Made by a program: the position numbers and the translations under genes. Below the pieces are notes generated by a model that made no database searches, was not told where the DNA came from, and saw nothing but the letters and a program-made list of their open reading frames with translations. A DNA stretch of 64,000 nucleotides from an uncultured Muribaculaceae bacterium (GTDB lineage Bacteria; Pseudomonadota; Alphaproteobacteria; Rs-D84), in the NCBI GenBank assembly GCA_964576135.1, contig CAZNTZ010000001.1, forward strand, positions 5,792-69,791. Reading direction: 5' to 3'. This document shows, one piece after another, positions 3,945 through 47,308 of this stretch; position 1 is the stretch's first letter, and the number at the start of each line of letters is the position of its first letter.

Positions 3945-5171
3945 ATGTTTAATATAACAAAAGTACATGCGCGGCAAATAATGGACAGCCGCGGAAATCC
4001 AACAATTGAATGCGATATTATGTTATCTGGCGGCGCTTTTGGCCGTGCAGCGGTACCAAGTGGCGCAAGCACAGGTAGCCACGAAGCGCTTGAATTGCGC
4101 GATGGTGGCAAAGATTATATGGGCAAAGGTGTTTTAACAGCGGTAAAAAACGTAAATGAAATTATTGCACCTGTCGTTATTGGTATGGATGCAAGCAAAC
4201 AATTTGAAATTGATGAAAAAATGATTGAGATTGACGGCACCCCAAACAAAGCAAAGCTTGGTGCAAATGCGATTTTGGCTGTTTCAATGGCTGTTGCACA
4301 TGCTGCTGCAAAACAATCTGGCAAACCACTTTATAAATATATAGAAACAAAAAATGGATTGTCTTTACCACGTCCAATGATGAATATCATCAATGGTGGT
4401 GCACATGCAGATAACGGACTTGATGCACAGGAATTTATGATTATTCCACTGACAAATTCGGCGACAAAATCCGTAAAGATGGGCAGCGAAGTTTTTCATA
4501 ATCTGAAATCAATTTTGAAACAAGCCGGTCATTCAACCAATGTTGGTGACGAAGGTGGTTTTGCGCCAAACTTAAACACAACCCGCGAAGCACTTGATAC
4601 AATTATGTCTGCTATTGCCAAAGCTGGTTATGTTGCAGGAACAGATATCGCAATTGGAATGGATGTCGCAAGTTCTGAATTTTATCGTAACGGAATTTAC
4701 GAATTCGAAGGCAAAAAATTATCATCTGATGAAATGGTTGCTTTCTATGAAAAACTTATTTTGGATTATCCGATTATTTCAATCGAAGACGGACTGGCCG
4801 AAGATGATTGGGATGGATGGAAAAAATTAACATCATCAATTGGTGAAAAATGCCAATTAGTTGGCGATGATTTATTCGTAACAAATCCGACGAGATTGAA
4901 ACGTGGAATTGACGCCGGAATTGCAAATGCGATTTTAATCAAAGTAAATCAAATTGGTTCTTTGACAGAAACTTTTGCAGCGATTAAAATGGCACAAGAT
5001 GCAAAATATGGTGTTATCATATCGCACCGCAGTGGCGAAACCGAAGACACAACAATTGCCGATTTATCAGTTGCAACTGCTGCGGGTCAGATTAAAACAG
5101 GTTCAATGTCACGAACAGATCGTATGGCAAAATATAACCAATTGATCAGAATTGAAGAGGAAATCGCATAA
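3945..5171 (+). CDS. eno: enolase (phosphopyruvate hydratase)
   Basis: 408 aa. N-terminus [41 protein letters not shown], and full-length enolase-like conservation including ...[12 protein letters not shown]...SHRSGETED. Confidence 0.95.
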
Positions 5172-42829: not shown

Positions 42830-42858
42830 TTTTGTATATACATTGTGTATATACAAAA
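42830..42858. repeat. perfect 12-bp inverted repeat (TTTTGTATATAC-attgt-GTATATACAAAA) upstream of tRNA-Gln
   Basis: Read directly from the sequence. In the divergent intergenic region between the GT2 gene start (42671) and tRNA-Gln (42946). Confidence 0.6.
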
Positions 42859-42945
42859 GTTTGTTTAATTTCCAGGCCTTATTGATAAAACTGATGTGAT
42901 TTTTGTTTGCAAAGCTTGCTTTTGCAGCTTATAATGGCGCCGCAT

Positions 42946-43019
42946 TGGGGCATAATTTAACGGTAGAATACCGGACTCTGACTCCGTTCATGTTGGTTCG
43001 AATCCAGCTGCCCCAACCA
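42946..43019 (+). tRNA. tRNA-Gln (anticodon CUG)
   Basis: TGGGGCATAATTTAACGGTAGAATACCGGACTCTGACTCCGTTCATGTTGGTTCGAATCCAGCTGCCCCAACCA. U1:A72 acceptor pair characteristic of tRNA-Gln. Loop CTCTGAC. Close overall match to E. coli tRNA-Gln. Confidence 0.85.
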
Positions 43020-43022
43020 ATT
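43002..43022 (+). repeat. direct repeat copy 1 (last 18 nt of tRNA-Gln plus 3 nt): ATCCAGCTGCCCCAACCAATT
   Basis: Identical 21-mer recurs at 43181-43201. Confidence 0.9.
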
Positions 43023-43055
43023 ATTTGAACCCTTGTGGTTCGAATAATTGGTTTT
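43017..43055 (+). terminator. 15-bp stem-loop terminator overlapping the tRNA-Gln 3' end
   Basis: CCAATTATTTGAACC-cttgt-GGTTCGAATAATTGG followed by ttttgag (one G:U pair). Confidence 0.65.
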
Positions 43056-43180
43056 GAGTAAACTGATATGAGAACCTTGGTTCGCTTACGAGTCAGCGAG
43101 CAGAGCCAAAGCGAAAGTGAGCGTAGTGGAGCGTCAGCGAACGGGAACGAGTTGAAGCAGAGCGCAAAGCGCGAGCACCC

Positions 43181-43201
43181 ATCCAGCTGCCCCAACCAAT
43201 T
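43181..43201 (+). repeat. direct repeat copy 2 of the tRNA-Gln 3' end (att-like)
   Basis: ATCCAGCTGCCCCAACCAATT, exact match to 43002-43022. Preceded by a ~100-bp GC/purine-rich tract atypical of this AT-rich genome. Confidence 0.9.
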
Positions 43202-43536: not shown

Positions 43537-43565
43537 CTATAAATCAATGAACAAATGGGGTGACA

Positions 43566-44336
43566 ATGTTCAAAAAACTGAAATTAAAATTAGCAGCTTT
43601 AAAATTACAGATAGCCACTAAAAAGGCCGAAAAAGAAGCACGTCGTGCCAAAGCACGCGCAAAGAAATCTACCAAAACCGATTCGAAAAATAAATCGGCA
43701 GTCGGTCGCGTATTAAGTTACATTATTAGAATACCTTCTAAAACTTGGAATTGGATTTCTACACGCAATACAATCGGTTTAATAAATTTGGCTTTGCTTG
43801 CTGGAATTATTGTTTTATTTTCAATTTTAATTATCGATTTATACGATGCCAACCAAATCAAAAATGGTAAAAATGGTTCTGCATTATTCCGTGGGGCATC
43901 TGCAGATGAAACATCAATGACTACAGAACAACGTCGCGTTATTGTTCGCACATCCGTTTCTGTTGGTAAACAACGTACAATTAATACTGTAAGTTTGCCT
44001 CTGGAAAAACCGGCAACTGTTTCAACATATGTTTATGAGAAAGTTGTTGTTCCAACCCGTAATTTATCTGGTGACATTATTATTGATGGCGAAGATATAG
44101 CAAGCCTGCGTCTTATGCCTGGGGACAATATTTCTGGAAATTTGATTGTACAAAATGTTCGTCGTTTCAAATTACCACACGATATTAAGATAAACGGAAA
44201 TTTAATTTTACGTAATGCTGGGATTGTTAAATTCTGTGGACCGTTTACGATTACCGGTAATATTTACGTAAGTCGTAATTCATCTTTTGGTCCAATCCCC
44301 CGCGAAGCACACCTTGGTGGTCAGGTACTGTTCTAA
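43566..44336 (+). CDS. hypothetical bitopic membrane protein: Lys-rich cytoplasmic N-terminus, one TM, beta-rich C-terminal domain with GN(L/I)-type repeats
   Basis: MFKKLKLKLAALKLQIATKKAEKEARRAKARAKK..., TM IGLINLALLAGIIVLFSILIIDLY. C-terminal NISGNLIVQNV...KINGNLILRNAGIVKFCGPFTITGNIYVS. ORF track starts at GTG 43560. Confidence 0.5.
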   Translation: MFKKLKLKLAALKLQIATKKAEKEARRAKARAKKSTKTDSKNKSAVGRVLSYIIRIPSKTWNWISTRNTIGLINLALLAGIIVLFSILIIDLYDANQIKNGKNGSALFRGASADETSMTTEQRRVIVRTSVSVGKQRTINTVSLPLEKPATVSTYVYEKVVVPTRNLSGDIIIDGEDIASLRLMPGDNISGNLIVQNVRRFKLPHDIKINGNLILRNAGIVKFCGPFTITGNIYVSRNSSFGPIPREAHLGGQVLF

Positions 44337-44357
44337 AAATAAAAAGTATATTTAAAA

Positions 44358-44382
44358 ACGGCCACATGGCCGTTTTTTTTTA
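44358..44382. terminator. bidirectional rho-independent terminator between convergent genes
   Basis: aaaaACGGCCAcatgTGGCCGTttttttttt. Confidence 0.7.
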
Positions 44383-44387
44383 ATAAC

Positions 44388-45383
44388 TCATACAACTTCG
44401 GTAACTGCACGCAAAGATCCATCGCGTGAAAGTTGAACAACATGTAATTTCTTTTTCATTTCGGCAATCAATTCTGAACGTTCATATGCTGGTTGGGTAT
44501 GCAAAATTCTGTCAGAAAAAGCCTCGTACGCAGCCTCTGCACTTTCAGCATGAATAGTTGTATAAAAATGATCGTGACCAGTGCCCATCATTTCCCACAA
44601 AACACTGGCGTTATCGGTTGAAACTTCACCACCTATGATAACGTCTGGTGTCATACGAACAATTAAATCAAGAAGTCGCGCATAATTAAAATTGTTATTT
44701 TGTTCTGTACGTGACAACACAAAATGCACACGATTCTTTTGTGGAACTTTGATTTCACGCGCGTCTTCGATTGTTATTACACGCGCATTTTGATCAATCA
44801 ATGTTAGAATATGATTCAAGAACAAAGTCTTTCCAGTGCTGGTTGCACCAGATATTAATATAGGACTGCCATCATTTATTGCTGTCATTAAACGATCATA
44901 CGGATCATCTGGCTTTTTCTTGGAGCGTTGTTTTATACTTAATAATTTTTGACCACGTTTAAGGTGGTAATTTTCAAAAGTTATATCTGGTGCCGCACCG
45001 CCGCGAATATTTAATGCTATGCCACCCGTCAGATCACGATCATCATACATAACATTAGGACCCGCAATCGCACTGAAACGATGATTGCCAGGCAGAGTAG
45101 CATAAACAACTGGCATTCCACGAATTGGGTCAAAAGGTCTTTCGTAAACATTAGCAACACAATGAATCAAATCCATCAAATATTGTTTCGATAATTTTTC
45201 GGAATTATACGCAACCCAAGGCTTTGCAGGACCATGTAAACGCATCCATACTTCGCCCGCATGGTTTATAGCAATCTCTTCCACGAATGAAGGTGTAAAA
45301 AATTCTTCCAATGGTTTGATTAAAGTGTCTAATACTATATCGCTCATGTAACATATTTTATCAGAAATTCTGTATTGAATCAA
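44388..45383 (-). CDS. VirB11/TrbB-family type IV secretion/conjugation ATPase (stand-alone)
   Basis: 331 aa. Walker A ISGATSTGKT. ...VITIEDAREI... (VirB11 IEDxxEL-like). ...RMTPDVIIGGEVSTDNA... (VirB11 RxRPDRIIVGExR-like). Confidence 0.7.
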   Translation of the reverse strand: MIQYRISDKICYMSDIVLDTLIKPLEEFFTPSFVEEIAINHAGEVWMRLHGPAKPWVAYNSEKLSKQYLMDLIHCVANVYERPFDPIRGMPVVYATLPGNHRFSAIAGPNVMYDDRDLTGGIALNIRGGAAPDITFENYHLKRGQKLLSIKQRSKKKPDDPYDRLMTAINDGSPILISGATSTGKTLFLNHILTLIDQNARVITIEDAREIKVPQKNRVHFVLSRTEQNNNFNYARLLDLIVRMTPDVIIGGEVSTDNASVLWEMMGTGHDHFYTTIHAESAEAAYEAFSDRILHTQPAYERSELIAEMKKKLHVVQLSRDGSLRAVTEVV

Positions 45384-45425
45384 CGCGCTAAATCTGTTAG
45401 AATTCAGAAAACGAGAGATTTTAAT

Positions 45426-46001
45426 ATGAAAAAATTATATTTACTCTTTGCAATTTTGGCTTTGCCAATCGCAGGATGTGTTGATAATACAACAAATCAA
45501 CAACCGGACACTCCTTATAATACACAGGATTATGCCCAGGGTGGATTTGAAGCGCCCTTGATGAACGAGCGCACATCAAATTTTATGCAACCTGAAAATG
45601 AATACGCAGGCGTGGATTCTTATAAACCACATACCGAAATTGAAAAAGCAGAATTGAATAATAAATGGAATACTTCCAAAGTTGTTACACGGTGGCAAGA
45701 ATACAAAGGAACAATGGTTCGTGTTCAGATTTTACTCGGGGATACAGATTTGCGCGAAATGCGTTTACGTCTGATGCAAAATGCAAATGGCACTGATATT
45801 GATGGTGATTCACGTACAGTATTGTCAAAGGTTGCAGATTTTGAAATGAAGAAAGTTTGCGGCCGTAACGCAGATTCTTTCGTTATTGTTTATGACAAAC
45901 CTTCGTTTGAAACTATGCGTCCAACACCGTATTTCGATTATCGTGTTGAATCCCAAGGTGCAACTATGCGTACTTATGGATTTCGCTGTATTTATAAATA
46001 A
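45426..46001 (+). CDS. hypothetical lipoprotein
   Basis: Lipobox MKKLYLLFAILALPIAGC (internal ATG 45426; ORF track starts 45375). No motif recognised. Confidence 0.5.
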   Translation: MKKLYLLFAILALPIAGCVDNTTNQQPDTPYNTQDYAQGGFEAPLMNERTSNFMQPENEYAGVDSYKPHTEIEKAELNNKWNTSKVVTRWQEYKGTMVRVQILLGDTDLREMRLRLMQNANGTDIDGDSRTVLSKVADFEMKKVCGRNADSFVIVYDKPSFETMRPTPYFDYRVESQGATMRTYGFRCIYK

Positions 46002-46016
46002 TCAAAAGGAAAATGT

Positions 46017-46340
46017 ATGAAAAAAGTATTAGCTATGCTTGCTGTTGTTTTTGCGCTTGCCGCATGTGATAACAGTGCCAAAATTGGTGACACAGTTAAA
46101 ATCAATTTCGCTGGATTTTTGGACGGCGTTCAATTTCCAGGTGGCACAGCAAATGGTTTTGATCTGACATTGGGCAGCGGACAATTTATTCCAGGATTCG
46201 AAGATCAACTAGTTGGGGCAAAATCTGGCGAAGACCGCGATGTCAAAGTAAAATTCCCAGATAATTACCCAGCCAAAGAACTTGCTGGTAAAGATGTAGT
46301 ATTTAAAGTTACTGTATTAGATGTTAAACACGGTAAATAA
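46017..46340 (+). CDS. FKBP-type peptidyl-prolyl cis-trans isomerase lipoprotein
   Basis: Lipobox FALAAC. FKBP core [61 protein letters not shown]. Confidence 0.8.
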
Positions 46341-46360
46341 AACATCAGATAAAAAATAAA

Positions 46361-46384
46361 AACGGGTTTTACCCGTTTTTTTTA
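46361..46384. terminator. bidirectional rho-independent terminator between FKBP and recombinase genes
   Basis: aaaaAACGGGTtttACCCGTTttttttt. Confidence 0.7.
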
Positions 46385-47308
46385 TTTTGCGCGCGGATGC
46401 GCATGATTATAAGCCGACATTACAGATGTCATGTCAACTTTGGTATAAAGCTGGGTTGTTGATAACGATGAATGGCCGAGTAATTCTTGCAAACTTCGCA
46501 AATCTACACCGTCCGCGAGTAATGCAGTTGCAAAACTGTGACGAAGCGAATGCGGTGTTACATAATCTGGTAATTGTAACGCATGTCGCGCCCTTTCAAT
46601 AACCTTTTCAGCCATTCTTGCGGACATTGGTAAACCCCGAACGCTTCTGAATAATGGATCAGATGCTTCTTTGCCAAAAGGTCGCAGATACACATATTGT
46701 TCAATTGCTTCAAATACTGCTGGTAAAACTGGAACAAGACGTTCCTTGTTTCCTTTACCACGAATACGAAAAATATCAGGCCTCCCCGAAACATCAGCGT
46801 TCGTCAAAGCCAATGCTTCTGAAATTCGTAAACCACAACCAAATATAAGCACAACCAACGCAACATCGCGCGATGCAATCCACGGGTTATCAGATTCAGA
46901 TTCACTGATTTCATTTGTCATATTTTTAATATCTGTCGGCGAAATAGCTTTGGACAGTTTTTTTGGGATCTTCGGACTTGAAATCATCGCGATTGAATCA
47001 TTTATAATTTTATATTCGCGTGATAAAAAACGAAAGAACGAACGCAACGAAGACAACGCGCGCGCCGTAGATTTATGGGATAAATTACGTTTCTGACGAT
47101 CAGCCAACCAAGAACGAAAAGCGAAAGTTTCAATGCGTGAAAAATCATTTAACTGGGGGGTATTGCCGCAAAAACGACCGTAAAAATGAATAAAATCATA
47201 AATATCACGGCTATACGCTTCGGCAGTATAGTTAGAATACTTTTTTGTATTCAATAAGTAATTGATAAAACTGGTTATTTCTGTATCCATTAAATAACAA
47301 ATCGACAC
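46382..47308 (-). CDS. tyrosine site-specific recombinase, XerC/XerD family
   Basis: 308 aa. N-terminal SAM-like domain. C-terminal catalytic ...HSLRHSFATALLADGVDLRSLQELLGHSSLSTTQLYTKV. Confidence 0.85.
   Translation of the reverse strand: MSICYLMDTEITSFINYLLNTKKYSNYTAEAYSRDIYDFIHFYGRFCGNTPQLNDFSRIETFAFRSWLADRQKRNLSHKSTARALSSLRSFFRFLSREYKIINDSIAMISSPKIPKKLSKAISPTDIKNMTNEISESESDNPWIASRDVALVVLIFGCGLRISEALALTNADVSGRPDIFRIRGKGNKERLVPVLPAVFEAIEQYVYLRPFGKEASDPLFRSVRGLPMSARMAEKVIERARHALQLPDYVTPHSLRHSFATALLADGVDLRSLQELLGHSSLSTTQLYTKVDMTSVMSAYNHAHPRAK

Follow-up and report, generated by a model that had tools for sequence, protein, structure and literature searches.

A tRNA-Gln 3' end repeat in a gut alphaproteobacterium and a putative family of structured, gene-less insertion units at tRNA genes

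The window (the whole 64-kb stretch of DNA analyzed here) contains six tRNA genes, including an intact tRNA-Gln(CTG) gene located downstream of groES/groEL and of a gene encoding a family-2 glycosyltransferase. On the other side of this tRNA gene lie ORFs encoding a 258 amino acid hypothetical protein (hyp258), a VirB11-like ATPase, a 208 amino acid hypothetical protein (hyp208), a small FKBP, a XerC/XerD-type recombinase, a LOG-family protein, TilS, and FtsH. The following features were annotated at the tRNA gene and in the sequence behind it:

42906-42935, + strand: predicted sigma-70-like promoter of tRNA-Gln (TTTGCA/TTGCAA, spacer of 17-18 nt, TATAAT)
42946-43019, + strand: intact tRNA-Gln(CTG) gene with encoded CCA (ARAGORN; Rfam tRNA model, 60.6 bits)
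43002-43022, + strand: left copy of the 21-nt repeat (T-loop AT, 3' strand of the T stem, 3' strand of the acceptor stem, ACCA, ATT)
43015-43053, + strand: hairpin (arms of 17 nt, loop of 5 nt) that contains the CCA end and has TTTTG behind it
43063-43198, + strand: body and 3' end of the putative element, matched by the family covariance model
43070-43084, + strand: GAGAACC-TT-GGTTCG, a small hairpin with the GGTTCG motif, shared in the alignment with loci L138, L148, L137, L152, and L160
43085-43180, + strand: GC- and purine-rich tract, read from its composition, internal repeats, and cmsearch alignment as the rearranged middle and 3' domain of the element
43181-43201, + strand: right copy of the 21-nt repeat, an exact match to 43002-43022

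The same promoter motif is found upstream of tRNA-Gln in L001, the closest relative with window synteny. About 75 nt upstream of the promoter lies a perfect 13-nt palindrome (TTTTGTATATACA / TGTATATACAAAA, positions 42830-42858), a candidate site that may correspond to an operator or another binding site; its TGTATATACA..TGTATATACA motif is also present upstream of tRNA-Gln in L001 (about 4900-4930).

An earlier note on this DNA, made from the sequence alone, had reported an exact 21-bp repeat of the tRNA-Gln 3' end, a strong 15-bp hairpin overlapping the end of the tRNA, and a filler of unusual composition, and our analysis bears out all three. The 21-mer (ATCCAGCTGCCCCAACCAATT) forms a unique pair, as the window contains two exact copies and no other site with three or fewer mismatches, and shuffling gave a chance expectation of zero (0 matches in 100 shuffles). 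Its first two bases are the last two of the T loop and its end lies 3 nt beyond the CCA, and with one mismatch allowed the tail repeat grows to 24 nt. No second tail copy was found for the other five tRNA genes of the window. The hairpin is slightly longer than claimed, with arms of 17 nt (43015-43031 and 43037-43053) that are 94% complementary. Between the two repeat copies lie 158 bp without a credible ORF. The tract at 43085-43180 has a GC content of 0.594 (window mean 0.376) and a purine content of 0.667, both of which are reached by only 10 of the ~64,000 windows of the same length (96 nt), all at 43083-43095, and are thus unmatched elsewhere in the window. Its AGCG/GAGC-rich appearance, also pointed out in the note, stems in part from internal repeats (GTCAGCGA at 43092 and 43133; AGCAGAGC at 43099 and 43156), with 8-mers recurring at offsets of 41 and 57 nt. 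The tract also holds GCGC-AAA-GCGC (43162-43172), as well as GGG (43143-43145) and CCC (43178-43180) on either side.

The genes downstream of the repeat had been read as compatible with a decayed integrative and conjugative element (ICE) at tRNA-Gln, comprising an envelope protein, a VirB11/TrbB ATPase, a lipoprotein, and a XerC/D recombinase. The names of these genes point in this direction, and the ATPase does match VirB11/TrbB models, albeit below their cut-offs. Against it stands the synteny of the region. Homologues of the ATPase number more than 1,400; the top 120 (79-89% identity) come from uncultured Alphaproteobacteria and 'Rickettsiales' MAGs, and the protein is 80-89% identical in more than 100 relatives. 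In 77-79 of 80 GTDB species representatives, many of them named 'Candidatus Enterousia', the ATPase, hyp208, and FKBP genes are neighbors; the XerC-LOG-TilS-FtsH extension is kept in the seven closest of these 80, and the order FtsH-TilS-LOG-XerC-FKBP-hyp-ATPase-hyp is the same on the contigs with the closest homologues. Since this gene order is conserved across the lineage and the base composition of 43560-47308 is ordinary (the GC content is backbone-like), the ICE reading is unsupported and we consider it very improbable. Judged from gene order, the neighborhood is core genome and not an island. The suggestion that the true right boundary of an island lies further downstream fares no better, given the absence of a third 21-mer from the window and the synteny of the genes. 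Likewise, the recombinase at 46382-47308, the one nearest to the insert, has the scores of XerC/XerD rather than of a phage integrase, and relatives have it in the same syntenic place; both points count against the ICE reading.

Two of these core ORFs deserve a comment. The ATPase, hyp208, and FKBP genes (44388-46340) form a block in which a lone VirB11-like ATPase is kept without adjacent type IV secretion genes. In turn, the N-terminus of hyp258 (43560-44336) is rich in Lys, and the protein also contains a hydrophobic segment and, toward its C-terminus, repeats (GDIIIDGEDI.., NGNLILRN.., TGNIYV). One homologue carries the NCBI name 'polymer-forming cytoskeletal protein', suggesting that hyp258 could be a bactofilin-like protein. 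After an identical protein, the next best homologue is 63% identical. This protein is fast-evolving, with 37-63% identity between homologues versus 80-89% for the neighboring ATPase.

The search for further copies of the 21-mer and of the tract, a check proposed in the note, had a divided outcome: neither recurs in the window, where the family described below has a single copy, and a family of related units was found at other tRNA loci. JGI metagenome contigs were scanned with the 18-nt tail, yielding 106 loci with ~80 real tRNA-Gln genes in four sequence variants, and ~30 of these ~80 genes have a second tail copy 150-270 bp downstream. Considering related genomes and metagenomes together, units are present at about half of some 70 tRNA-Gln loci. 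Based on covariance model and HMM matches, they are also located behind tRNA-Lys (L078), tRNA-Glu (L074 and L042), tRNA-Gly (L189), and tRNA-Pro (L055); for the units of L073, the tRNA ahead of them lies off the contig. In the 2.1 Mb searched, every match immediately follows the 3' end of a tRNA or of a preceding unit and shares the tRNA's strand. Three tail copies are present in L183 and arrays in L138, L166, and L167; arrays reach 3-4 units, and mixed and hybrid units exist. The bodies of the units are 75-88% identical between loci whose sequences over the 300 nt ahead of the tRNA cannot be aligned (~50% identity).

Other searches returned no relatives of the insert. IMG/VR and the GTDB species representatives contain no exact match to a 26-mer of the purine-rich tract, a pattern describing the attR junction was not found in viral or JGI metagenome contigs, viral contigs match neither the 18-mer tail nor two body motifs, and BLASTN against phage and plasmid collections gave chance matches only. 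Rfam 15, searched with E-values up to 1-10, recognized only the tRNA in the window region and in 10 unit-bearing loci. Such units are not described in the literature found by our searches.

The units are 150-190 bp long, lack ORFs, and comprise four parts. They fall into types A, B, and C, plus B+A hybrids, where types A and C were described by eye and from single folds; at tRNA-Gln loci, ~25 have units of types B/C and ~13 of type A. The first part is a long hairpin starting from the CCA end, with a GC-rich tip and a T-run behind it, which replaces the tRNA's own terminator. The hairpin at 43015-43053 of the window is, by family comparison, the counterpart of this terminator-like hairpin, which opens every unit. 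The second part is a 5' segment in which the 3' end of that tRNA is repeated imperfectly and in inverted orientation. In type A this segment is a perfect complement over 13 nt (GGGGCAGCTGGAT), and in type B it is imperfect with many G-U pairs. The third part is a body of covarying helices, which in types B/C sits between GGTTCGA and ATCC, corresponding to T-loop positions 57/58, in the place of the T loop. The fourth part is a direct copy of the last 19-21 nt of the tRNA, from T-loop position 58 to the CCA.

The second and fourth parts are predicted to form a closing helix by pairing with each other, thereby recreating the acceptor/T-stem 'minihelix' of the tRNA in question. At every non-Gln locus, the 3' end of the unit equals the last 19 nt of its own tRNA and the 5' segment is complementary to this tail. 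The closing helix even follows differences between tRNA genes of the same specificity: two tRNA-Glu loci differ in the T stem by CCGG versus CTGG, their tail copies differ likewise, and the corresponding 5' strands read CCGGATT and CCAGATT. Units internal to arrays in L138, L166, and L167 lack the CCA end (CAGCTGCC-TACCGAT).

Several loci show variations of this plan. In L073 (1-850), units of types C and B alternate in an array at least four units long, and each of them ends in AATCCTTCTGGATGCGCCA. L155 and L157 carry a minimal 72-bp insert after tRNA-Gln, consisting of the opening hairpin, TTATTGTGTATCGAGGCACT, and the tail copy. As this right-end module is also appended to type-B units in L102 and L192, the two ends seem to be the parts of a unit that persist.

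Comparison of loci with and without units indicates that these are inserted DNA. In L001 the tRNA-Gln gene is in the same place as in the window and its tail is not duplicated. Four Enterousia loci (L016, L066, L073, and L024) have tRNA-Gln at another location: in L016 the tail recurs 185 bp downstream, L066 shares this insert but its second copy is degenerate, and the tRNA-Gln sites of L073 and L024 are empty. The sequence past the second tail in L016 is orthologous to the sequence found right after the tRNA in the empty loci. Moreover, one and the same point is occupied by a type A unit in L016 and by a type B unit in L108, both with the same orthologous native terminator behind them, and these two units appear to be independent insertions at one site. 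Empty (L073/L024) and filled (L016/L108) sites together show that the repeat is a true duplication of the tRNA 3' end flanking inserted DNA, as the note had supposed. They also favor one of the options it had listed, a miniature non-autonomous element, since both states precede the same native terminator. Variable presence among relatives, which it had proposed to look for, holds for the units, which are present or absent at orthologous sites. Because the flank past the second copy in L016 and L108 is orthologous to the flank of the empty site, on the integration model the right copy of the window (43181-43201) would represent the original 3' end of the tRNA after its displacement, with the native T-rich flank behind it.

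The other option raised for the repeat was a deletion scar, taken here as the attL/attR scar of an integrase island or prophage whose interior was deleted, leaving a decayed cis-mobilizable element (CIME) in which the filler is a leftover attP arm. In its favor, the repeat starts in the T loop, which is reportedly a classical sublocation of integrase crossover, and a genuine integrase island is present at this tRNA in L106, where a Phage_integrase domain gene starts 318 nt 3' of tRNA-Gln; a further locus, L191, has a scar-like partial copy of this tRNA (see below). The filler of the window is, in contrast, homologous to units that keep a constant size, a constant architecture, and covarying helices at more than 35 loci and behind several tRNAs. 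Independent deletions would not yield a constant architecture, and the homology of the filler to a conserved, structured element at many loci makes a simple deletion scar unlikely. In addition, the arm of the L106 island has no similarity to the units, no integrase is located in or beside the window insert, and the nearby recombinase is a syntenic XerC. We therefore regard a scar at this locus as quite improbable.

Integrases were found at only two tRNA-Gln loci, L106 and L191, and neither adjoins a unit. In L106 (3442-4900), the gene past tRNA-Gln(CTG) encodes a 366 amino acid phage-type integrase in the same orientation as the tRNA, and this conventional island lacks a family unit. In L191 (2229-2490), part of tRNA-Gln is repeated 188 bp downstream of the intact gene, over 44 nt that span the anticodon loop through the CCA. 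The filler there is AT-rich and unrelated to the family, and a P4-like integrase gene lies on the 5' side of the tRNA; without a family body, this copy resembles a true scar and represents a different kind of insertion. A third locus, L182 (1330-4240), has a small island to the left of a type-B unit, encoding a 171 amino acid protein with HUH (YHMHILI) and tyrosine (VKYTTKQLK) motifs and weak matches to replication initiators (Pfam PF23343, E = 8e-4; PHROG 3584, E = 2e-3), which we mention as a lead only. The body of the L182 unit is flanked by a 52-nt direct repeat comprising CAACCA, the hairpin, and the first 14 nt of the unit.

To describe the fold of the units, RNAalifold was applied to ten type-B units, revealing four helices with compensatory changes. 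As RNAalifold on MAFFT alignments missed variable hairpins through register shifts, a hand-specified structure with realignment was used instead: the covariance model R1 was built from 10 units with a hand-written structure of 32 pairs, and 36 clean R1 matches were realigned to it, so that the covariation counts rest on a model-fitted alignment. In this alignment of 36 units, 82.6% of the cells at paired positions can pair (65.2% after shuffling), and the covariation score is 0.397 versus 0.148 for shuffled alignments, with none of 500 shuffles reaching 0.397. As a control, sliding the partners by 1-3 columns lowered the score to 0.04-0.07. Double-sided changes occur in 27 of the 32 pairs of the model-fitted alignment, and some pairs show four Watson-Crick types. 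As G-U/U-G cells outnumber A-C/C-A cells (76 versus 36), the tRNA-sense strand is favored as the one to which the modeled fold would belong. Folding z-scores against shuffles were -3.5 for L119 and -6.7 for L016, and in the predicted fold of type A the closing helix leaves the ACCA single-stranded.

These structural data are shared by a second reading, in which the units are host genes for a tRNA-linked small RNA and not mobile DNA. Such an RNA would be transcribed, directly or by read-through, from the tRNA promoter, cut by RNase P at the closing stem, and would have an NCCA end and its own intrinsic terminator; gains, losses, and arrays would arise through unequal crossing-over between repeated tail-plus-hairpin segments. 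The GC-rich hairpin and T-run after every unit, the strong covariation with conserved loops and junctions, the excess of G-U over A-C pairs on the transcribed strand, the ACCA predicted to extend beyond the closing helix in type A, and the better conservation of the units relative to their flanks are all consistent with this, and the terminator-like hairpins, the covariation, and the conservation fit it as well as they fit inserted DNA. A host gene accounts poorly, on the other hand, for two unrelated unit types at one orthologous site in different species with other species empty, for the roughly half of tRNA-Gln loci without any unit, for the same body behind at least five different tRNAs, for the CCA end lost in array-internal units, for the truncated 72-bp versions, and for the loss of the fold in the window copy. 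We consider this reading unlikely, though well worth keeping in view, and it is compatible with mobility and hence not exclusive.

The window insert itself is matched end to end by R1 at 43063-43198 (+ strand; 22.9 bits, E = 0.0035 in 694 kb), and with filters off this is the sole match in the window under E = 0.1 (E = 3.3e-4). With the other units it has in common, besides this match, its position 3' of a tRNA on the tRNA's strand, the opening hairpin including the CCA, the sequences TTGGTTTTG.. and GAGAACCnnGGTTCG, the CGAG..CACCC right end, and the tail copy. It aligns best with the UGAGAUGAGAACCnnnGGUUCG subfamily (L138, L148, L137, L152, and L160), and its right end CGAG-CACCC is type A-like. 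Its fold is no better than that of shuffles (z = +0.40), the closing helix is not intact, several pairs of the model are broken, and the acceptor-like 5' strand reads UUGAGUA versus UGGGGUA in relatives. From this comparison, the window copy is best described as a divergent, rearranged member of the family that has apparently lost most of its fold and is probably inert. A perfect 21-nt repeat next to a lost fold and a low score would be odd for an old relic and is not explained by slow decay; a fairly recent insert with a single internal rearrangement would fit.

Taking these data into account, we propose, as a reading that is somewhat better than an even bet, that the 179 bp at ~43023-43201 are one copy of an undescribed family of structured tRNA-3' insertion elements in 'Candidatus Enterousia'-like gut Alphaproteobacteria. 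The units are most likely non-autonomous insertion elements that target tRNA 3' ends and act as a folded single strand. Entry would take place by site-specific recombination within the last ~20 nt of the tRNA gene, the element bringing a replacement 3' end and terminator and the original 3' end being pushed downstream. Since the element encodes no enzyme, it would be mobilized in trans. The active form would be the folded tRNA-sense strand, as RNA or as single-stranded DNA. The terminators and G-U pairs speak for a possible RNA form with a tRNA-like minihelix; the inverted tail, the arrays, and the internal loss of the CCA speak for a possible single-stranded DNA form in which a recombinase would be offered a double-stranded copy of attB. 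At the loci examined, the units could not be linked to a recombinase, a reverse transcriptase, or a circular form.

A bolder proposal, tentative and in our view more apt to be wrong than right, is that the units constitute a new class of selfish or domesticated element whose two ends, folded in a single strand, would mimic as a duplex 'minihelix' with NCCA the 3' third of their own tRNA gene, a mimicry used for insertion beside tRNA genes. By one route, the folded single-stranded DNA would be a substrate of a host Xer-type or other recombinase, analogous to the attP of CTX-phi or the attC sites of integrons. By another, a tRNA-tagged RNA would be processed and copied, providing a living example of the 'genomic tag' idea.

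Among known systems, CIMEs would be the nearest named category and folded single-stranded att sites the nearest working analogy. CIMEs keep attL and attR and have lost integration and transfer genes, and tandem accretion at tRNA 3' ends is described for Streptococcus ICEs and integrative mobilizable elements (IMEs) (PMC5704250). The window insert likewise has tail repeats at both ends and no genes. CIMEs are, however, decay products of kilobase-sized ICEs/IMEs without a conserved fold, whereas the units are 150-190 bp long and have a constant architecture, covarying helices, an inverted tRNA end, and one body behind several tRNAs. No full-length relative was found in 193 loci, and the L106 island shares no arm sequence with them. 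With tyrosine-integrase islands the window insert shares the direct tail repeat (21/21 nt) starting in the T loop; unlike them, it contains no integrase next to the tRNA.

The attP(+) of CTX-phi (XerCD) and the attC sites of integrons (IntI) are closer in organization, as an imperfect inverted repeat of one strand folds to mimic the duplex partner site. In silico, the units form such a strand-specific palindrome rebuilding the partner site as a duplex, and in both cases structure is conserved above sequence, the branched center is variable, and tandem arrays occur. The units differ in that they target the end of a tRNA gene and not dif or attI, are not accompanied by phage genes or an integron integrase, and have G-U-rich helices and terminators that suggest RNA at least as much as single-stranded DNA; the nearby XerC-like gene is here a syntenic core gene. 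MITEs and the small palindromic repeats known from Alphaproteobacteria and Neisseria, such as Rickettsia palindromic elements and Correia elements, are similar in size (~100-200 bp), lack of ORFs, folding inverted ends, variable presence, and the ability to supply terminators. MITEs, in contrast, are dispersed in many copies, their terminal inverted repeats are fixed, and their target duplication is short and fixed, while the inverted ends of the units change with the tRNA (Gln, Lys, Glu), the duplication covers 19-24 nt of the tail, every copy is tied to a tRNA, and there is one copy in 64 kb.

Finally, tmRNA, viral 3' tRNA-like structures, and YrlA resemble the units in having an acceptor/T-stem-like helix with a 3' NCCA on a non-tRNA body, but the units lack a T loop, a D-arm analogue, and a tag reading frame and are recognized neither by ARAGORN nor by the Rfam models of tmRNA and other families. 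Other candidates were considered and rejected. tmRNA, including the permuted alphaproteobacterial form, is discarded by the missing T arm and the other absences just listed. A GAUGA-stem-GAA arrangement had suggested a hammerhead ribozyme, but it is not maintained among the subfamilies and the essential C3/U4 are absent. The region has neither a cloverleaf nor any similarity to the tRNA body, which argues against a second, degenerate tRNA gene. The constant position of the body, between TTCGA and the tail, also brought IS200/IS605-type PATEs and an omega-RNA-like 'scaffold plus guide' into consideration; this was kept as a remote idea only, as neither a TnpA nor a TnpB gene is found nearby and the inverted copy of the tail would be left without an explanation. 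We class the units as small non-autonomous elements at the tRNA 3' end that do not show the defining features of integrase islands, MITEs, or Rfam families.

Duplicated tRNA tails are routinely read as the footprint of an integrase island, and here the same footprint belongs to a compact, gene-less, structured unit, which cautions that tRNA-tail repeats alone are insufficient for calling islands. In practical terms, the covariance model and the sequence signatures can be used to annotate such loci. The units copy the tail of their own tRNA in both orientations and do so for at least five tRNA species in a little-studied gut lineage with reduced genomes. If they are RNAs, they would represent a new tRNA-mimicking RNA family; if they move, no smaller tRNA-targeting element would be known, and a new mobilizing activity would be implied.
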